A stretch of DNA of 9,822 nt from a virus (lineage: Duplodnaviria; Heunggongvirae; Uroviricota; Caudoviricetes), in IMG/VR virus record IMGVR_UViG_3300011952_000030; one strand, 5' to 3'. The position numbers were made by a program, and so were the translations under genes. Below the pieces are notes generated by a model that had not been told where the DNA came from, ran no database searches, and was given only the letters and a program-made list of their open reading frames with translations. This document shows positions 390 through 9,822 of this stretch, in pieces (position 1 is the stretch's first letter; each line of letters starts with the position of its first letter).

Positions 390-1349
390 TTAATTCACCA
401 TCAGTCTTAGAGCCAGTTCTTCCGGATAGGGATCGAAGTAATTCTGTGTAAGCAAGTAATCATTAGGATACTCACCCAGATAATGCTTCAGCAGAGTCAA
501 CGGCGCAAGAAGAGGCAATGTGCCAAAGCGATAGTTAAGTATAACCTCGGTCAACTCTTTACGCTGGCGTGTACTTAAGTAATTACTAAAATACCCCTGT
601 ATATGCATCAGCACATTCGTGTGATTTTTACGTGATGCAGGTTTTCTGAGAATCGCCATCAGCTTATCACGATACACCTCAAAGTATGATTCAAGGTCCG
701 CCCACTCGTGTATTGCAGCCACAAATGGTCCCATATCTTTATAGCCTGCCTGACTATGCGCCAACAACTGAAGCTTATAACGACTATGAAAAGCTAATAA
801 CTCTCTTCTTGATAATTTCTCCTTGTAAAGGTGATTGAGCTCATGCAAAGCAAAAACTCTTTCAACAAAATTCTCACGAAGCACTGGATCATGTAATCGC
901 CCATCCTCTTCAACCGGTAGCCAGGAAAACTTTTCCATCAAAGTGCTCGTAAATAGTCCCACTCCATCTTTACGACCTCGATTACCATTTTCATCATAGA
1001 CACGCACGCGCTCCATGCCACAGCTGGGAGATTTAGCACAAACCACAAACCCCGATACATCCTTTAATTTGTGCATATAAGAACGACTAAACTCTGTCAT
1101 TCTCTCTGTCACATCCTCATTCTGGTCGTGGCTGAAACACATCCGTATATTTCCTTGCTTCGAGCGCACAAGACGTAGAGCAGGACGCGGAACTGGCAGC
1201 CCTATAGCCATTTCCGGACATACTGGTCTGAATGTTACCCATTCCACTAATTTGTCCATTAAAAAGTCAGCTCTTTTGTGACCACCATCAAAACGAACAG
1301 CAGAACCGGCCAAACAACCGCTGATTCCAATCACAGGTTTTTTTATCAT
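390..1349 (-). CDS. DUF523 (TudS-like, Cys-rich N-terminal half) fused to DUF1722 (YbgA-like C-terminal half), 319 aa
   Basis: ORF with ATG at 1349..1347 preceded by GGGGGAGGA Shine-Dalgarno. Cys motifs (GISGCLAG, VCPEMA, CAKSPSCGME) fit DUF523; the C-terminal half resembles YbgA. Family assignment is from memory, not a search. Confidence 0.75.
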   Translation of the reverse strand: MIKKPVIGISGCLAGSAVRFDGGHKRADFLMDKLVEWVTFRPVCPEMAIGLPVPRPALRLVRSKQGNIRMCFSHDQNEDVTERMTEFSRSYMHKLKDVSGFVVCAKSPSCGMERVRVYDENGNRGRKDGVGLFTSTLMEKFSWLPVEEDGRLHDPVLRENFVERVFALHELNHLYKEKLSRRELLAFHSRYKLQLLAHSQAGYKDMGPFVAAIHEWADLESYFEVYRDKLMAILRKPASRKNHTNVLMHIQGYFSNYLSTRQRKELTEVILNYRFGTLPLLAPLTLLKHYLGEYPNDYLLTQNYFDPYPEELALRLMVN

Positions 1350-1541
1350 ATCCTCCCCCTTGACTAATTCATTAACACATAAACTGTGTAGTGCACGGAA
1401 TAAATTGCCTTTCTGACGTCATCACTGACAATTTTTCTGTTATGGACTATTCCTAATATAGTATGAAAGTTCTTTAAGTGATCGGTCGTAATCATCTATC
1501 TTTCATACTTACTCTCAACTATCAAAAGTACAGGATTGATT
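1350..1541. promoter_or_regulatory. Divergent intergenic region between the YbgA-like gene and blc, with a 10-bp inverted repeat AGTATGAAAG (1461-1470) / CTTTCATACT (1500-1509) and a TGACGTCA palindrome (1426-1433)
   Basis: Repeats read directly in sequence; promoter function is inferred from position between divergent starts. Confidence 0.3.
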
Positions 1542-2066
1542 ATGAAGTTATGGCCTGTGTTGACTGGCATTGCACTCTCTTTCACTCTTATAGCATGTAA
1601 GGCCCCGACACCACCTAAAGGTGTGCAGCCGATTACAAATTTTGACGCCAACCGCTACCTCGGAAAATGGTATGAAATAGCTCGCCTCGAGAACCGGTTC
1701 GAACGTGGTCTGGAACAGGTCAGCGCTACTTATGGAAAACGGAACGACGGAGGGATTCGTGTACTTAACCGTGGATACGATCCAACGAAAAATAAATGGA
1801 GCGAGAGCGAAGGTAAAGCATACTTTACTGGAGATACTAAAACTGCAGCGTTGAAGGTTTCGTTTTTTGGCCCCTTCTATGGTGGCTATAATGTAATCAA
1901 ACTGGATGATGAGTATAAGTATGCTCTTGTTAGTGGTTCGAACAGAGAATACCTATGGATTCTGGCAAGGACCCCAACTATTCCAGATAAAGTAAAAGCA
2001 GACTATGTGCGAACCGCTCAAAAGTTGGGATTCAATGTCAATGAATTATTATGGGTTAAACAATAA
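1542..2066 (+). CDS. blc: Blc-family outer-membrane lipocalin lipoprotein (174 aa from ATG 1542; ORF track starts at TTG 1536)
   Basis: Signal peptide with lipobox L-I-A-C, then lipocalin motifs (NFDANRYLGKWYEIARL, FERGLE, KVSFFGPFYGGYNVI, YLWILARTP) closely parallel to E. coli Blc as recalled. AGGA lies 6 nt before ATG 1542. Divergent enough from chromosomal Blc to be a paralog. Confidence 0.8.
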   Translation: MKLWPVLTGIALSFTLIACKAPTPPKGVQPITNFDANRYLGKWYEIARLENRFERGLEQVSATYGKRNDGGIRVLNRGYDPTKNKWSESEGKAYFTGDTKTAALKVSFFGPFYGGYNVIKLDDEYKYALVSGSNREYLWILARTPTIPDKVKADYVRTAQKLGFNVNELLWVKQ

Positions 2067-2094
2067 AATCCCTACCCGAAATGATACTTATTAG

Positions 2095-2121
2095 AAAAAA
2101 ACCAGCCTTTGGGGAGGCTGG
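2095..2121 (-). terminator. Intrinsic terminator on the minus strand: 7-bp GC-rich stem (2102-2108 / 2115-2121), 6-nt loop, then a 7-U tract (plus-strand A-run 2095-2101); candidate tR' downstream of Q
   Basis: Stem pairs checked base by base; the U-tract only exists on the minus strand. Lies about 100 nt downstream of the Q stop (2222). Confidence 0.55.
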
Positions 2122-2221
2122 CTAAATCAGGAAACAAGCTGTTATATGATAATAACTACGTTGCGATTCCAACATTTAAAATGTTAGACTAATGACAATC
2201 AGACAGCAACTTTTCCTTTAA

Positions 2222-2599
2222 TTATTTCGAACAATCAGCATCCATCTCCAATCGGAGATCCAATACCATCAGCATGCCCTCCACTACGCCCTCAGCTTTC
2301 TGGAGCATCCTGCCAACCCAACAATCAGATCGCCCATGCTTACGTGCAAGCGCCATAAAAGTCATGCCGCCGACATAATAGTCCACCAATAAACCATGTA
2401 AATCGCTGTTGTTTTTTCTCAGGCGAGCCATACATTCACAAATGATCATCGCGTCATCGTCACAACATTGCGGGCGAGATTTTACTTTTGAAGGAATTAA
2501 TCCCTTAAAACCAGCGGCAATGGACGACCAGGTCACATCTTCATGATTATTAGCCGCCCATGCCCCCCAACGCTCAAGAACCATCTGAATATCACGCAT
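2222..2599 (-). CDS. quuD: Phage antitermination protein Q (QuuD / phage-82-type), 125 aa from ATG 2599 (ORF track starts at TTG 2614)
   Basis: [34 protein letters not shown]... and the Cys-rich zinc-binding region ([18 protein letters not shown]) match E. coli DLP12 QuuD as I recall it. GGAG lies upstream of ATG 2599. Confidence 0.85.
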
Positions 2600-2616
2600 C
2601 AACTTACTCCACAAAA

Positions 2617-3603
2617 TTAGGCCAGCACACCAATTGCCAGCGCGCGATCGATAAATCGAAAAATCAGCTCCAGTTGGGAGCCATACTTCTCTTCAAATGC
2701 CACGGTATCCGTATGCAACTCGTCGTGATGCTTTCTGCACAAAGGCAACACAAAGAGATCATGTGCTTTGGTTCCCATTCCGCCCTGCCCGTGACCAATC
2801 AGATGATGCGGATCGTCGGCTGGCATCCCGCAGCAAGCACACGGCTGTGTCTTAACCCAGCGTGTGTATTTCTCCTTAACCCAACGGTGACGTTTAGGCA
2901 GCTTCATGAAAGATTCCGGAGACTCTGGATCAACGGTGATGCTTACCACCGTCTTTTCCTGTGATGGGTTTTGTTGCTGGTGGGCGTGAGGCAACGGTGC
3001 AAGATTTTTTGTGCGCTGTTTCAATATGCTGGTGGCGGTCTGCTCTCCCGGTACGATGTCGCTTTCGCGGTACACCGAGCAGATTTTTTCCGCTGGTAAT
3101 CCCAGCGAGCGACGTAATACCGCTTCCGGTAGCGCGTCCGCCAGCTGATTGCGGACCGCCCACCAGGATAATTCAGCCAGAGATAATTCACGCTCCTTCG
3201 TACCGCTTATTGCGTGACCGATGACGTCAATCATCCATGCTGCCAGGTTTTGATGAGCAAGTTGCTCGAGTGATTCGGATGTCTGGTCACGCAGTTGGTT
3301 GTCGCAGTGCCAGCACAACACCATTGCGCCGGTACCATATCGGTGAATAACGGTTTCNNNNNNNNNNNNNNNNNNNNNNNNNNNNNNNNNNNNNNNNNNN
3401 NNNNNNNNNNNNNNNNNNNNNNNNNNNNNNNNNNNNNNNNNNNNNNNNNNNNNNNNNNNNNNNNNNNGCAGATTACGCATGCTTTTCGGTTCCGGCTCCA
3501 CCAGTACCCGGGTATTGTGGAATACCGGCATGGATTCACGGCCCGGCTTAACGACCACCAGCCCGAGTTCCGGTACCAGAACAGGTCGAAGTAATACCCG
3601 CAC
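2617..3603 (-). CDS. Nin-region protein with C-terminal HNH-like zinc-finger motif (DUF968 / YdfU-like); reading frame passes through a 110-nt N-run so the product is incomplete
   Basis: C-terminus [18 protein letters not shown]...[10 protein letters not shown] has the CxxC...HH...CxxHH spacing typical of HNH/DUF968 proteins found just upstream of Q in Qin-type prophages. ATG 3603 sits 1 nt after the upstream gene stop. Residues within 3358-3467 are unknown. Confidence 0.55.
3358..3467. other. Run of 110 N (masked or unresolved sequence) inside the DUF968-like gene
   Basis: Directly visible. The flanking reading frame is conserved across it. Confidence 0.95.
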
Positions 3604-3604
3604 G

Positions 3605-3883
3605 TTACCTCCAGATGCGTTGCTGGAATGTACGGGACGGACGCGGTGGGCGTTCGGAGTAAGGCAATCTGACTGAGATTATCCAGTGACGGTAGTCGAG
3701 ACTAAGGGCTTTCTTAACCTCGTATCCGCGCCTGCGGTAACACTGAATTATCCATTCAGCCTGCTCTTCAGTGCATGGAGGGTGCTGGAACCATTCAGAC
3801 TTGAATGCGTGAGAATACCGCTCGTGCGTGCAGGCAAGAACGGGCGAATTATCAGAATTGTAATATTTTACGTTGCGTGCCAT
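3605..3883 (-). CDS. Hypothetical small phage protein, 92 aa, Cys-containing
   Basis: ATG 3883 preceded by GGAG; the stop abuts the start of the downstream gene. No family recognised. Confidence 0.5.
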   Translation of the reverse strand: MARNVKYYNSDNSPVLACTHERYSHAFKSEWFQHPPCTEEQAEWIIQCYRRRGYEVKKALSLDYRHWIISVRLPYSERPPRPSRTFQQRIWR

Positions 3884-3949
3884 CGGTTTTCTCCGGTGGC
3901 ACGGTGTTACTCAGCGGGAGTTCAGCCCCGCGCAAGATTGTAGATGAGT

Positions 3950-4201
3950 TTATTCTTCTGCAAAAGCTGAAAAGCCTGCTTTTATTCCGATCTCTTTCAG
4001 TGCCTGTAATGAAGTGACAAACTCACCTTCGCGCAAGATAAATCCGTCTGTCACTCGACCATCCACAAAATTAATTAACGCAGCCCCATTCTTTCGCAAA
4101 CACATAATGCGGTAATGACTAACAAGATTTCCATTTTCAACGCACACAGCATAGAGGCCATCTTCACAAAAAATTTTACGCAGTTCTTCGATGTTCATCA
4201 T
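3950..4201 (-). CDS. Hypothetical small phage protein, 83 aa (occupies the position of rem in Qin-type prophages)
   Basis: ATG-ATG start at 4201; family not recognised. The rem comparison is positional only. Confidence 0.5.
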   Translation of the reverse strand: MMNIEELRKIFCEDGLYAVCVENGNLVSHYRIMCLRKNGAALINFVDGRVTDGFILREGEFVTSLQALKEIGIKAGFSAFAEE

Positions 4202-4317
4202 CAGAATCCTTCCGGATAATTAGCTCTCCCCTTTAAGGGACCATCCCTCTTATCCCTGCGCGCTACTTAAGTATTTTTGATTCTATTCCGGCACCGTCCA
4301 GAACTTCAAACGCGTTG

Positions 4318-4347
4318 AAAATAAAAACAAAAACACGCCGAAGCGGG
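4318..4347 (-). terminator. Weak GC hairpin with UUCG-type tetraloop (4334-4347) followed on the minus strand by a U-rich tract (plus A-rich 4318-4333); candidate hokD transcript terminator
   Basis: Stem has 4 G-C pairs and one mismatch; the U-tract is good. Position is about 70 nt downstream of the hokD stop. Confidence 0.35.
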
Positions 4348-4417
4348 TTAAGTGCGGGTGCGTTGAGGATGCCTGTCACATCAGAGGTGGCGAGGGATTT
4401 CTCCCTCGCCGGGTCTC

Positions 4418-4573
4418 TTACTCCTCAGGTTCGTAAGCTGTGAAGACAGCGACCTCCGTCTGGCCGGTTCGGATTCGTACCTCGCAGAGGTCTTTCCTCG
4501 TTACCAGTGCCGTCACTATGACGGTTAAACAGATGACGATCAGGGCGATTAACATCGCCTTTTGCTGCTTCAT
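4418..4573 (-). CDS. hokD: Hok/Gef-family type I toxin (HokD/RelF-like), 51 aa from ATG 4573; the ORF track's longer 70-aa form is an in-frame upstream extension
   Basis: MKQQKAMLIALIVICLTVIVTALVTRKDLCEVRIRTGQTEVAVFTAYEPEE matches E. coli K-12 HokD as I recall it: single TM helix plus conserved Cys and C-terminal periplasmic tail. A perfect 9-bp stem-loop (4389-4410) lies just 3' of the stop. Confidence 0.85.
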   Translation of the reverse strand: MKQQKAMLIALIVICLTVIVTALVTRKDLCEVRIRTGQTEVAVFTAYEPEE

Positions 4574-4951
4574 AGCCTGCTTCTCCTTGCCTTTCGGCAC
4601 GTAAGAGGCTAACCTACATGTGTCTAGCATGAAATTGGCCTCAGATTAATGTTAAGCGTCTTGCAGGACGCGTAATGTTAACTGGGGCTTTTCTCTATCT
4701 GCCGTTGGTGTTCATGCCCGAGGCAGATAGCCTCAAGCACCCGCAGGCATTCTACTTAACTCCCGTTATCTCGCCAATATGAAATCAGTCAGAAAGGCGA
4801 TCCATAAGAATAACAGAACAATAAATTACCCGCACCACCGCAATAGTCAGCGAACATTTAAGAACCAACATGACAGCCTCCCACATTTAAAGTACGTATG
4901 TTCTAATAAATATAAATGGCATGATTCTGCGAAATACTTACATAAGCAATT

Positions 4952-4980
4952 CGCTCAAATCTGACTGTCAGTTTTGAGCG
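4952..4980 (-). terminator. Near-perfect 29-nt palindrome (CGCTCAAA t CTGAC t GTCAG t TTTGAGCG) about 40 nt downstream of the ATPase gene stop; candidate operon terminator or protein-binding site
   Basis: Read directly in sequence. Flanked by an A-rich tract on the plus side and a moderately U-rich tract on the minus side. Sits at the left edge of the AT-rich island. Confidence 0.4.
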
Positions 4981-5018
4981 AGAAAAATGATATCTACATA
5001 TCTATCAAATTACAAATC

Positions 5019-6743
5019 TTAAAGCCTAAAAAACTTATCGTCCTCCCCAAGCTCAAGCACAACACTATTATTGATGAAGTCTTGATCAATATTCTCCAAC
5101 TTGTCTTTAAGAATAGCCAATATATATTGACCATTAATCCCCGAAGCTATCTCGAATAACTTATTTATTTGATTTACATGAATTGCCTCAATTCCATCAT
5201 GAGCTATAAAACGTGGTGTTCTGGCTTCTAAAGACTCCTGGACAGATAAATAGGCAAAATCTAAAGAGGCAACCTGGGCTTTCTTTTTTCCTTCTCCCTG
5301 ATTACCTGATGTGAGCAAAGTTCCTAAAGGTTCAATGGTAAAAACGAAAGAACCGGAGGAATCTTTATAGGAAAGAATATATTCATCCTGATATAATTTT
5401 TTAGTATATAAAGAAAAATAGGAATTGAATAGCGCAAGACGTTTGTTAAAATCGTCAAGTTTAGATTTTAATCTATCTGACACATCATTAAACTTTGCTT
5501 TCAGTATATTAAAGTTGTTCTCCATCTCTTGGATTTGAAGTAGTCCAGCTTCAAGCCCACCTTTTTCTTCAAATAATGAATTTAATTTTTTTTGCATTAT
5601 TTGCAGGTCTGCCAATGTCCCATGCGAAGACAAACTCTTTAAAAGCTCTGATTCTTGAGTCAATAAGTTATTTAGTTCATCTTTATATTTGGAAATTTCT
5701 TGCAGCACTGGCTGCATTTGTTTTCTAATAAACTCAGCTTTTTTTACAAGCATTTTATTATGAAACGAAAGTAGCTCAGTAAACTCTTTGTTTAAGTTAC
5801 CTAACCGATCAGTTGCTTCTAAGTACAACTTCTGTAGATCTAGTGTATTTATATTTTCATGACTTTTTTCCAGATCTAGTATAGCCTTATCGTTTAATTT
5901 TTGCTTAAACTCCAAAGATGATAGTGTGATAGAAACTTCACTAATTTTAATTTTTAACTCATTTAACTCAGCAAGCATATCATTATAAGAGTCTGCCACT
6001 TGAAAATTAGAAATTAACTCTTCTTGTGCTATAATATCTCTATTTATAATTGCAATAGCTTGTTCCAAAGCATTCTTTGAGCGATGGCGAGTAATTACTT
6101 CATAATCGGATTTCGCCAGTTTATAGGCTTTAGTCACTGACTGTTTTTCATCCAGAATCTGTGAGTTACCGAACCCAAACATAAACAGATTTAACGTTTC
6201 ATATTGTGTATTAGAACCCATTTTTATCGTTTTTAATGCGTTCGACATCTTGTCATGCGTATTTCGAATAACACGTCCCATAATCTCTCGTATGGTCGGT
6301 TTTATCGCGGAATCAAGATATAATGTTCTTTTTAAAGCCTCGTTGAAATCTTTAGCCTTCGTATAGGACTCTTCATTTATTGAGGCTATAACCTTCGTTT
6401 TATTAGTCTCAGATGTAATTTTACGCTTAATTTTTATTACTGGTGCAGTTTTATTATTCAAATCTTTTGTGAGAATTAAACAAAACTCAATCTCGTTCTC
6501 TATCAAATAATTTTTTATAACCGAATTTTCTTTCTTGAATTCAGGATCGGTATAAAAATTCAGTTGTTCTGCTCCAAAACAAAAATCTAAAGCTCTTAAT
6601 ACAGTAGTTTTTCCCACACCATTTCCAGTTTGCTCTTTGCTGGAGGTGTTTCGGTCAATAATCAAATTAACGCCAATGTGAAATTCGATATCACGAATCA
6701 CTCCAAGCCTGAAAGAACTGACTATTAGCCGTTTCAAAAACAT
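5019..6743 (-). CDS. P-loop ABC/SMC-like ATPase with long central coiled coil, 574 aa; last gene of the AT-rich operon
   Basis: N-terminal head typical of SMC/RecF/OLD-type ABC ATPases, with Walker A GNGVGKTT (aa 40-47, nt 6603-6626). Lys/Glu/Leu-rich heptad region at about aa 230-470. Degenerate signature-like TSGNQGEG (aa 479-485) and Walker-B-like FIAHD (aa 512-516, nt 5196-5210). ATG 6743 overlaps the upstream gene by 10 nt. Confidence 0.8.
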   Translation of the reverse strand: MFLKRLIVSSFRLGVIRDIEFHIGVNLIIDRNTSSKEQTGNGVGKTTVLRALDFCFGAEQLNFYTDPEFKKENSVIKNYLIENEIEFCLILTKDLNNKTAPVIKIKRKITSETNKTKVIASINEESYTKAKDFNEALKRTLYLDSAIKPTIREIMGRVIRNTHDKMSNALKTIKMGSNTQYETLNLFMFGFGNSQILDEKQSVTKAYKLAKSDYEVITRHRSKNALEQAIAIINRDIIAQEELISNFQVADSYNDMLAELNELKIKISEVSITLSSLEFKQKLNDKAILDLEKSHENINTLDLQKLYLEATDRLGNLNKEFTELLSFHNKMLVKKAEFIRKQMQPVLQEISKYKDELNNLLTQESELLKSLSSHGTLADLQIMQKKLNSLFEEKGGLEAGLLQIQEMENNFNILKAKFNDVSDRLKSKLDDFNKRLALFNSYFSLYTKKLYQDEYILSYKDSSGSFVFTIEPLGTLLTSGNQGEGKKKAQVASLDFAYLSVQESLEARTPRFIAHDGIEAIHVNQINKLFEIASGINGQYILAILKDKLENIDQDFINNSVVLELGEDDKFFRL

Positions 6744-6970
6744 AATATCAAATCTCCATTTTCGTTAGCATCAACCAGGCCTAATAAATATAGCCAATTT
6801 AAAGTGTAAATATATTGCGTGAATGAAGAGTTGTTATTTTTAGATTTGAATTCATTATACAAGTCTATAATATCAACATACGAATAAGCATTTGAACTCA
6901 TGCATTCTAATAACCGAGCTCCCAGGTAATACAAGGTTTGGCTTGGTTTTGTTACATCAGAGATAATCAT
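6734..6970 (-). CDS. Small 78-aa protein, third gene of the AT-rich operon; possible adaptor or winged-helix-like component
   Basis: ATG 6970 overlaps the upstream stop in an ATGA arrangement; its own stop overlaps the ATPase start. Codon usage matches the neighbours. No motif recognised. Confidence 0.6.
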   Translation of the reverse strand: MIISDVTKPSQTLYYLGARLLECMSSNAYSYVDIIDLYNEFKSKNNNSSFTQYIYTLNWLYLLGLVDANENGDLILCF

Positions 6971-7563
6971 ATTGGTTTTTCCAGAATCTTACACTCTACG
7001 AATGCATGATAAACGATAAAAGAAGCATGGCATTCGATTTCTTCGCTTGTGTAATTCATTGCCATAAGAGAATTTAAGCATTTCTTAATGATGTGCTCTA
7101 TTACACTGTCTATTATCCAATCTGCAAACTCTCTTACCAATTGAATCTTTAAATTATTCCGTTCCTGAGCATCCTTGCAGCTCTTATACGCTTCTCTATG
7201 TTTAAGCAATAAATCTCCTTGACAATCAAGATATCGTGAATTGATGCTTTTCAGTGCCGTTTCCTTAGCAGTAGGCATACTTTCATTTAATGTTTCATAC
7301 GCTTTATCTATCATCGAAGAATATAGATAGAACCCTTCAATACGTTCTCTATGTTTTATAACATCATTGAAGTCTATTTTATTCTCAATATCATATGGCT
7401 CGTAGTCATTGTTTGTACGAGGATCAATAACATTCGAATCAACTAAAATACCAACAAGATCCATAAAAATCGATGGAGACTTTATAATATCAACAGAGTT
7501 AGAATCGACAACCACCTGCACATTACGTGAGTAATTCCCTGACCTTTGAGTAACACCAACCAT
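6967..7563 (-). CDS. 198-aa soluble protein of unknown function, second gene of the AT-rich operon
   Basis: ATG 7563 lies 2 nt after the upstream TGA; its stop overlaps the next ATG. Acidic, with five Cys but no recognisable nuclease or protease motif. Confidence 0.65.
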   Translation of the reverse strand: MVGVTQRSGNYSRNVQVVVDSNSVDIIKSPSIFMDLVGILVDSNVIDPRTNNDYEPYDIENKIDFNDVIKHRERIEGFYLYSSMIDKAYETLNESMPTAKETALKSINSRYLDCQGDLLLKHREAYKSCKDAQERNNLKIQLVREFADWIIDSVIEHIIKKCLNSLMAMNYTSEEIECHASFIVYHAFVECKILEKPI

Positions 7564-7565
7564 GA

Positions 7566-7811
7566 TCAGCCTCGCTTGTTTTCATTATTTCCAAAAACGA
7601 CCGTCTGATTATTTTTTGAATGGCTACCGCTTTTTTGAATTATTGTATGCCCTGAACTTTTTTTATTAACAATAAATGTACCTAAAAATGTTACAAGAAA
7701 GCTACCAGAAGTGAACATCAATGGCACACTATTGAAGTGATATGCAGCAAAGCCAGCGCAAGCAACGAATGTCAAAGAAAATATTCTAATCATAATTCGG
7801 ATCATAGCCAC
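7566..7811 (-). CDS. Small two-TM membrane protein (81 aa from GTG 7811, or 79 aa from ATG 7805), first gene of the AT-rich operon
   Basis: Two hydrophobic helices (about aa 8-27 and 30-48) followed by a polar Lys/Ser/Asn-rich tail. AGGA lies 8 nt upstream of ATG 7805. Confidence 0.55.
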   Translation of the reverse strand: MAMIRIMIRIFSLTFVACAGFAAYHFNSVPLMFTSGSFLVTFLGTFIVNKKSSGHTIIQKSGSHSKNNQTVVFGNNENKRG

Positions 7812-7899
7812 ATCCTGTAAGTACTGTTGTCATCTTTTAGTGATTCTTGAATCCCATACTATACAAAAGCTTATCCATCTTTTGTACAAGCTTCCGCTT

Positions 7900-7990
7900 T
7901 GAAAGTGACATTATAAAGTAACTACAACTTAGAGTGCATCCCCCTAAATATCTCCGATGGTGATAGTTGCTGGCTACAACTTACTTCCAT
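7900..7990 (-). promoter_or_regulatory. Putative promoter/operator of the AT-rich operon: consensus -10 TATAAT (minus strand, plus coordinates 7915..7910) and a perfect 10-bp direct repeat CTACAACTTA at 7922-7931 and 7974-7983
   Basis: Hexamer and repeats read directly. The -35 is weak (TGCACT), so activity is uncertain. The repeats are spaced 52 bp apart, about five helical turns. Confidence 0.3.
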
Positions 7991-8028
7991 AACCAACTAA
8001 CTGGCTTGCTCTGCGTTAATTAGTGCAT

Positions 8029-8085
8029 NNNNNNNNNNNNNNNNNNNNNNNNNNNNNNNNNNNNNNNNNNNNNNNNNNNNNNNNN
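8029..8085. other. Run of 57 N (masked or unresolved sequence) upstream of the AT-rich operon
   Basis: Directly visible. Flanked by ...TAGTGCAT and TGCATAGG... Confidence 0.95.
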
Positions 8086-8190
8086 TGCATAGGAATGTCA
8101 GCATTATCCGCTCTTGGCACAAACCAAACGACCACGCTAGCGCTAATCTTGTGCCACGAAAATGTCAATTCACATCTGAACTAATGCTCT

Positions 8191-8622
8191 TTAATCTCGT
8201 CGCTTCAATAGATATCGAACATTTCCCTGATAGAATGCGAGTATACGCTGCATAACTTCAGTCTTCCGGCACTCGCGACAGATTATGTTTAGGCGACTGT
8301 CGTAGCGGCGTATTTCTCCGTCAGGTAATGACCAGATAAGGTCCGGATCAACCACAGCAGGTTTCTTCACCTTTGCCCTCGAGAGTTTTTTGCGGGCGTG
8401 TTGCCAGTCCTTACGCGCCTGTTCAGACGGGAATAACCCGTAGCCGGAGTTGTATACATCGCCACTGGCTACCAGCTCTCTGGCAAGAACGCTCATCAGA
8501 TATCTAGTCGCACCTGTTTTAGCTTCCAGTTGCCGTAACGTCTCACGACCGCTCTGGCGCACGAGTTCCACCACCTGCCCTTTAATTTTTTCCCGCTCTT
8601 CTTGTGTAAAAACTTTTGCCAC
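8191..8622 (-). CDS. Hypothetical phage protein, 143 aa, immediately downstream of the replication initiator; possible helix-turn-helix
   Basis: GTG start at 8622 with a strong AAGGGGGA Shine-Dalgarno 5 nt upstream. Basic protein; a possible HTH (TLRQLEAKTGATRYLMSVLAREL). Family not recognised. Confidence 0.55.
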   Translation of the reverse strand: MAKVFTQEEREKIKGQVVELVRQSGRETLRQLEAKTGATRYLMSVLARELVASGDVYNSGYGLFPSEQARKDWQHARKKLSRAKVKKPAVVDPDLIWSLPDGEIRRYDSRLNIICRECRKTEVMQRILAFYQGNVRYLLKRRD

Positions 8623-8662
8623 AAGTCCCCCTTAAAATTACCTCATGACCTGAAATCAACAC

Positions 8663-9606
8663 TTATCCTCTGAAACCAGGCGGAATTTCTGTATCCGGTT
8701 CAGAAATATGATTAACACAACGCTGTACAGGTGAACGTCCCAGGCGGATGACCAGTTCGTCCCATTTTTCGCGGAGCTTTGACGGGCTCATGATGTTTTT
8801 TACCCAGAATGGATCTCGCTGAACCCGACCAAACATTTCGCAAATTTGTCTGTGGCTTCTGCCATCCAGCATCCGCATTGTGCGCACGTCATTGGCCCAG
8901 GCAGTCCAGTTAGGCTCTTTTGGTCGCATGATCTCGCCATCATCACTGGCTGCCTGTTCGTAGAGACCCACGATCCGCCCCCAGATCCACTGCGCACACG
9001 CCAAATCCTCCCTGCTACCCCACTGGCGTTTTTTCGCACTAAACACAACCGCGTCGGAGTTCCGGGTTAAAAAATCCTGTTCAGTCGTCTGCGGGTCCGG
9101 TTGCGAAGCTTCCGGACGAAAAGTGTTTTTATTCTCTGTAGTAATCTCTGTTGTATTCTCTGTAAGATCATCAGGCCATTTTGACCCGATGACATTGGAT
9201 CGTTTTGAACCAATGGAGCGTTTCATTTTGACCTCTTCCATCGTGTCATTTTGACCTGATGGAGCGGCGCATTTTGAACCGATGGATTCGTTCAATTTGC
9301 CACCATCTAAAAGCTCGCTCCCATAGTTGATCGTGTAGAAATTGGTCATATCGCGCTTTGATTTATTGAGCTTTTCACAACGCAAAAGCCCCAGCGTTTT
9401 CAGACTTGCAAACGCGCGCTTTAACGTTGACTCTGACCAGAATGGGAACTGTTCCAGCCATTGTTCCGTTGTGTTATAAATCCAGCGGAGTTGGTATCTC
9501 TCAACCAGTAGTGCAGTTGTTGCAAAACAATGGCTTCGTTTAAGCCGATTTTCATTGCCAGCTGCGTGTTTATAACCAGTGGGCGTTCAGCAAAAAGAAG
9601 ACTCAT
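8663..9606 (-). pseudogene. Lambda-O-like replication initiator (replisome organiser) disrupted by an apparent single-base frameshift near 9489-9503; contains the iteron origin
   Basis: N-terminal domain (MSLLFAERPLVINTQLAMKIGLNEAIVLQQLHYWL) is in one frame and its continuation (RWIYNTTEQWLEQFPFWSESTLKRAFASLKTLGLL...) in another. Both read as one winged-helix domain if a 1-nt indel is assumed. Could be a sequencing error rather than a true pseudogene. Confidence 0.6.
9177..9295. repeat. Replication-origin iterons: five copies of CATTTTGA(A/C)C(C/T)GATGG at 23-24 bp spacing, plus a degenerate sixth, flanked by an AT-rich repeat-containing stretch (9121-9176)
   Basis: TTTTGA cores start at 9179, 9203, 9226, 9249 and 9272. 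The adjacent AT-rich segment carries ATTCTCTGTA twice. Origin inside the initiator gene is the lambda arrangement. Confidence 0.7.
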
Positions 9607-9808
9607 AATTCCATCCAGCTTTTTGTTGGTATTGCTGTCGATACGCAAGCTTGAAAGCAATTGCTTTTTCTATAAGTTCGTCAGTTTCACGATCTACAAC
9701 GGCAGGATCTGCAAAAAGCAGTCCGGATTCCACCACATCGCCATATTCTTTATTTAACCCGGCGATCATGTACGTAATACTTTTTCCATCACTGGTCTCA
9801 CGATCCAA
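9587..9808 (-). CDS. Hypothetical 73-aa ORF upstream of the replication initiator; start may lie at or beyond the window edge
   Basis: Open frame ending about 20 nt inside the initiator start. No family recognised. Confidence 0.35.
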   Translation of the reverse strand: MDRETSDGKSITYMIAGLNKEYGDVVESGLLFADPAVVDRETDELIEKAIAFKLAYRQQYQQKAGWNYESSFC

Positions 9809-9822
9809 CCTGAAATCACTAA

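Follow-up and report, generated by a model that had tools for sequence, protein, structure and literature searches.

What an AT-rich island encodes, and how it came to lie between conserved phage genes, is the question raised by the locus described here. The locus is located on a 9,822-nt stretch of a virus of the Caudoviricetes (IMG/VR virus record IMGVR_UViG_3300011952_000030; this whole stretch is referred to as the window), which is 99.9–100% identical to a prophage of Escherichia coli WP2-W18-ESBL-08 and is a Qin-like lambdoid E. coli prophage. The cargo of the island is a single minus-strand operon of four overlapping or abutting genes that encode, in this order, a small protein of 79 residues, a 198-residue protein with a CTD10 domain, a middle component (i.e. 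MC6) and a DUF2326 ATPase (coordinates and domain matches are listed in Table 1). We consider it probable that this cassette is a four-gene anti-phage system of the Lamassu or ABC-three-component (ABC-3C) superfamily, in which the customary enzymatic effector has been replaced by a separate membrane protein.

Systems of the ABC-3C/Lamassu superfamily are built from three proteins, namely the effector LmuA, which has a docking domain at its C-terminus, the small middle component LmuC and the SMC-like LmuB (PMC10586767). The N-terminal part of LmuA is normally an enzymatic domain, such as a nuclease, Sir2, protease or lipase. In structures of canonical Lamassu solved by cryo-electron microscopy, LmuB2–LmuC sequester the oligomerisation domain of LmuA, and DNA ends or replication structures free LmuA, which then forms a tetramer. 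The third gene of the cassette overlaps both of its neighbours, encodes an LmuC-like middle component and is named 'ABC-three component system middle component 6' in RefSeq. The fourth gene encodes a protein that is LmuB-like by fold, an SMC/Rad50-like ATPase with a coiled-coil insertion. The AlphaFold2 model of this ATPase (predicted local distance difference test score, pLDDT, of 82.6) consists of a head, a coiled coil and a head; its best match in Foldseek was a model of Bacillus subtilis YydD-YydB (9a6c_A, 1.7e-23), followed by the solved LmuB proteins of Lamassu (9uxh_F, 8e-15; 9hqu_A, 4.7e-13; 9nyg_B, 8e-12) and then by SMC and Rad50 heads. The ATPase was the only cassette protein matched in PADLOC, where the best model was that of a candidate system (PDC-M68B, 1.3e-41) and the match to LmuB was weak (6e-4). 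PHROG matches were confined to the ATPase (annotated as of unknown function) and the Ren-like flank, none of the cassette genes was matched in NCBIfam, and sequence searches of the PDB with the ATPase, CTD10 and small proteins gave nothing meaningful. Three of the genes already bear ABC-3C or DUF2326 names in RefSeq, so that a system of this kind is not in itself new.

The Walker A motif of the ATPase (GNGVGKTT, residues 40–47) is invariant in its homologues. The Walker B motif reads FIAHD516-G (residues 511–516, window 5196–5213) and is followed by an invariant E519 and H522. The residue after the Walker B aspartate was glutamine in 14, glycine in 13 and serine in two of 30 homologues, with glycine after D516 in the enterobacterial clade and glutamine in most of the distant relatives. 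This D-[Q/G/S] pattern resembles the hhhhD[Q/S/T/E] that Haudiquet et al. (bioRxiv 10.1101/2025.04.02.646746) describe in short Lamassu systems, although the window itself has a glycine, and suggests that ATP hydrolysis may be slow or atypical, as proposed for short Lamassu. The coiled coil contains no CxxC and the ATPase therefore lacks a zinc hook.

The second gene carries the docking and oligomerisation domain of an LmuA-like protein (i.e. CTD10) in a chain that has no N-terminal enzymatic domain. In its AlphaFold2 model (pLDDT 73.8), residues 1–27 are disordered and hold no domain, and these are followed by a conserved helix (residues 30–41) and a helical bundle (residues 72–190). A profile search of 1.84 billion representative proteins returned 502 CTD10 clusters at 50% identity, and 142 of the top 150 were only 170–230 residues in length; within this family, being short is therefore the norm and not an accident. 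Relatives of the ATPase at ~35% identity were found in three-gene operons encoding an HNH-CTD10 protein, MC6 and DUF2326. These HNH-CTD10 proteins have 267–275 residues and an N-terminal HNH-type motif (CxxxxC...CHIEA...N..LLC..CH). The small upstream gene was absent from all four of the HNH-CTD10 loci examined, whereas a gene for a small membrane protein was situated directly upstream at every readable short-CTD10 locus (~195–230 residues), representing ~15 lineages. The hosts of these loci included Pectobacterium, Enterobacter, Chimaeribacter, 'Pseudomonas' flectens, metagenomic and IMG/VR contigs and a Clostridium botulinum plasmid. Because the small gene is present exactly where the enzymatic effector has been lost (~15 lineages versus none of the four HNH loci), it would supply the lost effector function: as judged from these sequences, the enzyme domain appears to be replaced by the N-terminal peptide of CTD10 (~25 residues, N/Q/G-rich) together with the small membrane protein.

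Some members of the family depart from both arrangements. One IMG/VR contig (L040, positions 2399–3106) was left out of the tally of upstream genes. Here, and in a second CTD10 protein (P0251), the open reading frame (ORF) may open with a hydrophobic segment, MVVLPLMLLATKTAL, before an N/G-rich motif, and no separate upstream ORF of ≥30 residues was found in L040. The same contig was the only locus returned by a viral scan seeded with the 'QQAGGDI' subgroup, and a scan of genome contigs for related loci yielded four loci only. A few other CTD10 proteins from the search of representative proteins, among them P0230 (348 residues) and P0271 (337 residues), carry N-terminal domains that are neither HNH nor motif, with that of P0230 bearing a restriction-endonuclease-like signature (GIDI...QCK); effector swapping in the CTD10 family therefore extends beyond the HNH and motif forms.

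The small protein has hydrophobic helices at residues ~3–24 and 29–48 and then a polar tail, with Kyte-Doolittle windows of >1.6 beginning at residues 1–6 and 29–30. An alternative GTG start at 7811 would give a product of 81 residues. Hydrophobic transmembrane (TM) segments are present in all of the small partners, and as the segments are bordered by positively charged residues, the tail is placed in the cytoplasm. The small ORF is under purifying selection (dN/dS of 0.09–0.31 in eight comparisons). No match to the small protein was obtained in Pfam, NCBIfam, PHROG or PADLOC, and a word-indexed homologue search recovered close relatives only. The distance between the small gene and CTD10 is variable: the two are separated by 2 nt in the window and by 35 nt in one contig (L037), and they overlap by 1, 4, 8 or 11 nt at other loci. 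As both the spacing and the frame relation vary between lineages, fusion of the two ORFs by a programmed frameshift was considered and rejected.

The two proteins share a motif of ~20 residues, located in the C-terminal tail of the small protein and at the N-terminus of its CTD10 neighbour. In the window, alignment of the tail IIQKSGSHSKNNQTVVFGNN with the CTD10 core VTQRSGNYSRNVQVVVDSNS gave a local score of 48 as compared to 19.2 ± 3.9 for shuffled sequences, and none of 2,000 shuffles reached the observed value. Across lineages, 13 of 14 pairs had z-scores of 4–10 against composition-preserving shuffles. Partners were then permuted among 11 lineages: the summed score of the true pairs was 527 versus 331 ± 31 for permuted pairs (0/200,000 permutations reached the observed sum), and the true partner was ranked first in eight of the 11 lineages in both directions. 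Similarity of the motifs as an artefact of composition is rejected by these shuffles and permutations. The motif is radically different between lineages and matched within each system, with forms such as QKGGxFSxNxQ, NSGDNxGTxxGxIxG, TGYQAxxMTVxN, GSVAVGGDNSG and NKQTxxGxNxQxIT. Examples of tail and CTD10 N-terminus, respectively, are TQKGGAFSQNTQNNYF and QQHGGMGSTNIQNNYL in Pectobacterium (L003), VSLKAGMFSTNTQSV and ATLTAGLGSTNTQNI in L024, NKQTAKGSGNTQTIT and NKQTVFGWDNEQNIT in L026, STGYQAENMTVNN and GTGYQADRMTVHN in L038, ASGASIAIGGNNSGNI and AHGGSVAVGGDNSGVI in L037, SVNNKGVIGGSISGGVSNNV and SVNNKGIIAGKIEGDVTNNI in L041, and NNHGNNSGIQIGNNNGDIN and NNHGNNDGLQIGVNKGPIN in L045; in C. botulinum (L036) the two regions are IRIENSGDNKGTMSGIITGGVNKN and ITLDNSGDNTGTIAGAIEGNVITN, with the motif pair IRIENSGDNKGTMSGIITGGV/ITLDNSGDNTGTIAGAIEGNV.

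The composition of the motif is strongly biased. Enrichment was observed for N (3.5-fold), Q (2.2-fold), G (2.0-fold), T (2-fold) and I (1.4-fold), and depletion for P (0.05-fold), L (0.2-fold) and K (0.7-fold). In the 142 short representatives, N, Q and G made up 32% of the first 30 residues as compared to 13% of the remainder. The motif region of CTD10 has a pLDDT of <50 in the monomer model. Adjacent genes carry the same N/Q/G-rich motif at the C-terminus of the proposed effector and the N-terminus of the sensor component, as in BASS-type amyloid signalling; on the sensor side the motif is borne by the CTD10 adaptor of an SMC-like ABC-3C complex and not by a single-chain NLR/STAND or Agp receptor.

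The cassette resembles several described systems and differs from each of them in part. With short Lamassu/ABC-3C systems the cassette shares the order of effector component, middle component and ATPase, the overlapping genes, the Pfam families, the LmuB fold and a non-canonical Walker B of similar pattern. It differs in that the LmuA-like protein lacks an enzyme and has ~27 disordered residues before its C-terminal domain, in an additional upstream gene, whose small membrane-protein product has a motif in common with the CTD10 protein, and in an ATPase that has no zinc hook and only a weak PADLOC match to LmuB (6e-4). In one group of short Lamassu, 'Clade O' (Haudiquet et al., bioRxiv 10.1101/2025.04.02.646746), LmuA was reported to have 'seemingly lost the effector domain'. 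This effector-less phenotype is the same as that of the 198-residue CTD10 protein, the likeness being one of description only, and the preprint does not mention an upstream membrane gene or a shared motif (bioRxiv 10.1101/2025.04.02.646746).

The same layout is seen in Bab/Agp (i.e. BASS11) of E. coli ECOR25, an experimentally validated anti-phage system that acts by abortive infection, with membrane damage as the proposed mechanism (bioRxiv 10.1101/2024.11.07.622273). There too, a small upstream protein with a hydrophobic helix and a C-terminal motif is paired with a sensor carrying the same motif at its N-terminus, in an E. coli prophage or defence island. In the cassette, however, the adaptor of an SMC-like three-protein complex takes the place of the single TPR-GreAB-C-PIN sensor, no homology of the small protein to Babybell was detected and the window motif (QKSGxxSxNxQ) is different. 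In the NLR/Bell BASS systems and fungal NWD2/HET-S, a motif of ~20–25 residues, in which N, Q and G are frequent and P, L and K scarce, is carried by receptor and effector, and oligomerisation of the receptor is proposed to nucleate a cross-beta fold that is templated on the effector. The cassette has the same adjacency of genes, the same placement of the motif (effector C-terminus, receptor N-terminus) and a similar compositional bias. The receptors of those systems are STAND NTPases and their effectors have Bell or HeLo domains; they are reported to be rare in Proteobacteria and unicellular bacteria, whereas the loci described here are in Enterobacterales, Clostridium and phage contigs.

One contig holds both types of system. 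In L037, an Agp-type PIN-TPR-GreABC gene (5159–7707) with its own 86-residue TM-motif-TM partner (DHGSVAVGGDANAPITVTN versus NNSSIAIAGDANAPVSITQN) is located directly downstream of a four-gene ABC-3C system (1757–4707) with a similar motif, HGGSVAVGGDNSGVI. Within this contig, the ABC-3C motif (HGGSVAVGGDNSG) and the motif of the neighbouring Agp-like pair (HGSVAVGGDANAP) are alike. A tblastn search of phage genomes with the L037 Agp-like protein, in which a Bab/Agp pair was sought, gave no match.

Starting from the observed family membership, synteny and motif co-variation, a mechanism can be proposed. By homology with LmuB2–LmuC and LmuA, the ATPase dimer and MC6 would hold CTD10 in the uninfected cell. 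We infer, again by homology, that CTD10 would be released once replication structures of the phage DNA, or DNA ends, are sensed, and would then oligomerise. By analogy with Bab/Agp and NLR/Bell, the clustered N-terminal motifs might then adopt a beta-rich, amyloid-like form and template the tail of the membrane protein. The membrane protein, on the same analogy, would assemble and permeabilise or depolarise the inner membrane, such that the infection is aborted. An amyloid-signalling cassette of this type is proposed as the best overall explanation, and we give it somewhat better than even credence. The broader proposition, that a Lamassu/ABC-3C branch of at least 502 clusters, with a range that takes in Enterobacterales, Clostridia and phage contigs, carries no enzyme and instead links its SMC-like DNA sensor to a separately encoded miniature membrane executioner via prion-like templating of the motif shared by adaptor and membrane protein, is advanced tentatively, as possible but somewhat short of probable.

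Several observations weigh against the explanation as a whole. The glycine after the Walker B aspartate leaves the chemistry of the ATPase uncertain. A convincing solved relative of the CTD10 fold was not found, and neither Pfam nor the PDB revealed any homology between the small protein and the Bell, Babybell or HeLo domains. One motif pair (L025) is weakly significant (30 of 2,000 shuffles), and among seven close enterobacterial lineages the partner signal is modest (55/5,040 permutations by identity and 25/5,040 by BLOSUM score). The CTD10 ORF of the L040/P0251 lineage, whose start codon is uncertain, may be a fused form of the two proteins. A scan for promoter consensus sequences (threshold of 4/6 matches per hexamer) gave no site upstream of the small gene. 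The amyloid interpretation is itself drawn by analogy, and the matched motifs could serve for ordinary heterodimeric docking instead of templating.

The last of these points leads to the strongest alternative, in which the cassette is the same, the motif is a docking element (acting by beta-strand pairing or groove competition), the small protein is an anchor or regulator and killing is performed by the ATPase complex or a host factor. Any specific contact, heterotypic or homotypic, would equally give rise to co-varying, matched motifs; moreover, no homology to known pore-forming death domains is seen in the small protein, and the motif of the window lineage is not obviously BASS11-like. The motifs are, however, copies of each other and not complementary surfaces; in their N/Q/G-rich, P/L-poor makeup and their S-x-N-x-Q ladder they look like typical motifs of cross-beta signalling; and the arrangement of the genes is that of validated amyloid pairs. 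Mere docking also sits poorly with the occurrence of the small gene at all readable short-CTD10 loci and at none of the four HNH loci. This alternative is regarded as unlikely, with an appreciable residual chance.

A function other than defence was also weighed, i.e. that the cassette is a moron acting as an addiction or toxin-antitoxin module, in superinfection exclusion through its membrane protein or in lysis timing. The cassette adjoins hok/sok, the corresponding slot of the K-12 Qin prophage holds relBE, the neighbouring gene is Ren-like and a small membrane protein could serve as a Sie-type or holin-like factor. Such a role is nevertheless improbable: three of the four proteins belong to families that were defined within conflict systems, the ATPase fold matches LmuB of Lamassu, and most of the other cargos of the slot are recognised anti-phage genes. 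Moreover, the cassette occurs outside prophages. The same four genes are located between int and psu/delta of a P4-like satellite, a position that is a validated defence hotspot (Rousset et al.), and other copies are beside AbiEii with an integrase, beside an Agp-like system, beside a restriction-modification gene and on a Clostridium plasmid.

That the cassette is a decayed Lamassu remnant without an effector, with an incidental upstream ORF and a motif likeness left by local duplication at a fission point, is scarcely credible despite the 'seemingly lost' effector domain described by Haudiquet et al. and the interruption by an IS3 element in two genomes, for the short form is dominant (142 of the top 150 clusters, 502 in all), all four genes have been kept intact and in synteny in different phyla, purifying selection acts on the small ORF, motifs that have diverged beyond recognition between lineages and remained matched within each system are not accounted for by a single duplication, and the varying frame relation and gene overlap exclude a conserved frameshift fusion.

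If the proposed amyloid-signalling cassette is correct, the effector-less Lamassu clade would be explained by an effector supplied in trans, namely a membrane protein of 60–110 residues that is ignored by gene callers and domain databases. Templating, if it occurs, would carry amyloid signalling beyond the NLR-type and Agp-type receptors described so far to SMC-like sensors, connecting it with SMC-type immune sensing for the first time, and would make it widespread among unicellular bacteria and mobile elements. In that case, the natural diversity of orthogonal motif pairs would provide specific protein-protein switches ready for use, and the whole system fits within one 3.2-kb E. coli cassette. 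In the literature searched, no paper was found that ties Lamassu/ABC-3C to amyloid motifs or to a membrane partner; an earlier mention in the founding ABC-3C paper is possible.

Table 1. Features of the four-gene cassette and its surroundings in the window
Feature	Position	Strand	Evidence or remark
Gene 1, small two-TM membrane protein, 79 residues, proposed effector	7566..7805	-	ATG at 7805
Gene 2, LmuA-like adaptor, CTD10 only, 198 residues	6967..7563	-	Pfam PF20275 CTD10, E = 1.6e-10, residues 36-195
Gene 3, ABC-3C middle component 6, LmuC-like, 78 residues	6734..6970	-	Pfam PF20293 MC6, E = 1.6e-13
Gene 4, DUF2326 SMC/Rad50-like ABC ATPase, LmuB-like, 574 residues	5019..6743	-	Pfam DUF2326, 4.2e-14
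Tail motif of small protein, IIQKSGSHSKNNQTVVFGNN	7584..7643	-	residues 57-76 in the 81-residue numbering
N-terminal motif of CTD10, GVTQRSGNYSRNVQVVVDSNS	7495..7557	-	residues 3-23; aligned core VTQRSGNYSRNVQVVVDSNS, residues 4-23; cognate of the tail motif
AT-rich cargo of the variable slot (island)	4868..8095		G+C content and homology breakpoints; bordered by the hok/sok locus and the tail end of the DUF977 gene region
Palindrome/stem-loop	4951..4981	-	31 nt, 15-nt arms, 93% complementary, 1 nt apart
Upstream non-coding region of the cassette	7812..8095	-	sequence reading and repeat search
N-run	8029-8085		57 N
DUF977 Ren-like exclusion protein gene, right anchor of the slot	8191..8622	-	PHROG phrog_142 'Ren-like exclusion protein', 1.1e-44; RefSeq DUF977
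mok/hokD toxin gene and sok region, left anchor of the slot	4418..4742	-	Rfam RF01794 sok, 115 bits at 4568-4742; RefSeq hokD in the identical locus
mok/hokD	4418-4630	-	
O-like replication protein	8663-9385	-	

The setting of the cassette was examined by comparison with other prophages. The early rightward phage genes are read on the minus strand of the window, in the order O-like replication protein, DUF977, island, sok, mok/hokD, rem, ydfU and Q, with YbgA and a lipocalin further left. The flanks of the island are present in >4,300 of 5,426 complete E. coli genomes, of which 17 carry this cargo. In a spread sample of genomes having both flanks, the slot between DUF977 and hokD held an anti-phage dCTP deaminase, SIR2, AIPR, HEPN, AbiH, a KwaB-like protein, SMEK with a methyltransferase, DUF4209, DUF5677, QueH, ParA, ImmA/IrrE or RelE/RelB. 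It is filled by relBE in the Qin prophage of K-12, and RelBE is likewise the cargo of the relBE-hokD locus in K-12-like genomes; in BL21 the slot is empty. The slot is thus bounded by conserved phage genes, accepts many alternative cargos that are rich in defence genes and also occurs as an empty site. The breakpoints cluster at 4870–4913 and 8096–8143. The sequence-only reading had proposed a cassette exchanged at a prophage accessory hotspot, lying between the replication genes and hok/nin, and the alternative cargos, the breakpoints and the empty site together support this exchange. The slot follows the Ren-like gene and not directly the replication genes. The island is accordingly supported as a horizontally exchanged four-gene cassette in a defence-cargo hotspot of Qin-like lambdoid prophages.

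The P2 and P4 hotspots (Rousset et al.) are similar in that conserved phage genes surround rapidly exchanged and mostly defensive cargo, with the same type of cassette in P4 int-psu. They differ from the present slot, which is inside lambdoid (Qin-like) prophages and runs from the Ren-like gene to hok/sok instead of lying beside cos. No paper naming the DUF977-hok/sok slot was found in the literature searched. With its breakpoints and empty site documented, this defence-cargo hotspot of Qin-like lambdoid prophages could be mined in the same way as those of P2 and P4, and BL21 is a natural recipient for its cargo. In BL21 (L032, NZ_CP060121.1, 1559315–1561987), the deletion enters the 3' end of DUF977, with homology resuming at window position 8326. 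In E. coli KK05-19 (NZ_CM144239.1/NZ_OZ392455.1), the cassette is broken by an IS3-family element and matches in two pieces over 4.7 kb. The RF01794 sok match at 4568–4742 is on the minus strand, which is also the mok/hok strand, whereas an antisense RNA should lie on the other strand; possibly the hok leader is what the model covers, or its strand convention is a different one.

The base composition of the island was compared with that of its flanks. The G+C content (GC) is 33.9% at 4868–8220 and 33.4% at 4870–7990, as compared to 49.2% on the left (2100–4867) and 47.8% on the right (8221–9822). In windows of 300 nt, GC is 30–36% continuously from ~4800 to ~8250 and 42–55% on either side, and the minimum of 26.5% is reached in a few 200-nt windows of the island. 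The GC of third codon positions (GC3) is 29–30% in the four island genes and 50% in the flanking DUF977 and O-like genes. A discontinuity is therefore present in both the sliding-window profile (33.9% versus 48–49%) and GC3, as anticipated from the letters alone. An island does occur at ~4870–7990; its GC is, however, 30–36% in 300-nt windows rather than the 25–30% that had been estimated, and the flanks, which had been described as 50–55% throughout, range over 42–55%. In every enterobacterial host examined the cassette has a GC of ~31% regardless of flank composition. Low GC therefore travels with the cassette, and its attribution to the prophage of the host is rejected.

The edges of the island were located by pairwise alignment. 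On the left, homology stops at 4870 with both the HannyBb phage and the empty slot of BL21, at 4881 with the dCTP-deaminase and SIR2 alleles and at 4913 with the AIPR allele, such that the predicted left edge near 4870 is sharp. On the right, the breakpoints are at 8096, 8119 and 8143 for the three alleles with dCTP-deaminase, SIR2 and AIPR cargo, at 8221 for HannyBb and at 8326 for BL21. The right edge had been assigned to 7990, at a promoter region and an N-run; it is indeed near the N-run, but the true edge (~8096–8143) is just past this run and ~100 nt further right.

The sequence-only reading had also taken a 29-nt palindrome at 4952–4980 as the left boundary. The palindrome exists in a slightly longer form (Table 1) and is part of the cargo: it is set back 81 nt from the island edge and follows the stop codon of the ATPase gene by 38 nt. 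It is confined to the E. coli-type copies of this cassette. A role as a recombination boundary is rejected, as the palindrome is situated within the island and travels with the cassette. As RNA of the coding strand it has a folding energy of -18.1 kcal/mol (z = -2.8) and no U-tract, and it was not called in a terminator scan; a canonical intrinsic terminator is thus also rejected. The palindrome is probably a 3' end structure of the operon.

The non-coding region upstream of the small gene contains a perfect minus-strand TATAAT at 7914–7909, with a weak -35, ~100 nt from the gene. A 10-nt direct repeat, CTACAACTTA, is present at 7922–7931 and 7974–7983, and an 8-bp inverted repeat, TACAAAAG/CTTTTGTA, at 7862–7886. 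We infer a putative promoter at the TATAAT from its sequence, and this element and the repeats (7860–7985) may be operator or promoter elements for expression in the lysogen.

The window includes two N-runs. The run of 57 N at the right edge of the island is bordered by TGCAT on both sides, and relatives with 100% identity (L001, L015 and L027–L029) are contiguous across it, reading CCTATGCACTAATT with nothing extra; this run as hidden cargo or an insertion site is rejected, since the identical relatives are all contiguous at this point. The corresponding island sequence in NZ_AP021933.1 (2453797–2456967) is likewise free of the N-run. The second run (3358–3467, 110 N) is within ydfU and stands in place of 173 nt of L001. 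Both runs look like artefacts of scaffolding or masking and not biology.

Additionally, a second AT-rich stretch (26–33% GC) was observed at the left end of the window, at positions 1–450. It is located upstream of the YbgA (390–1349, minus strand) and lipocalin (1536–2066, plus strand) morons beside the Q antiterminator gene, and may be another accessory region of the prophage.

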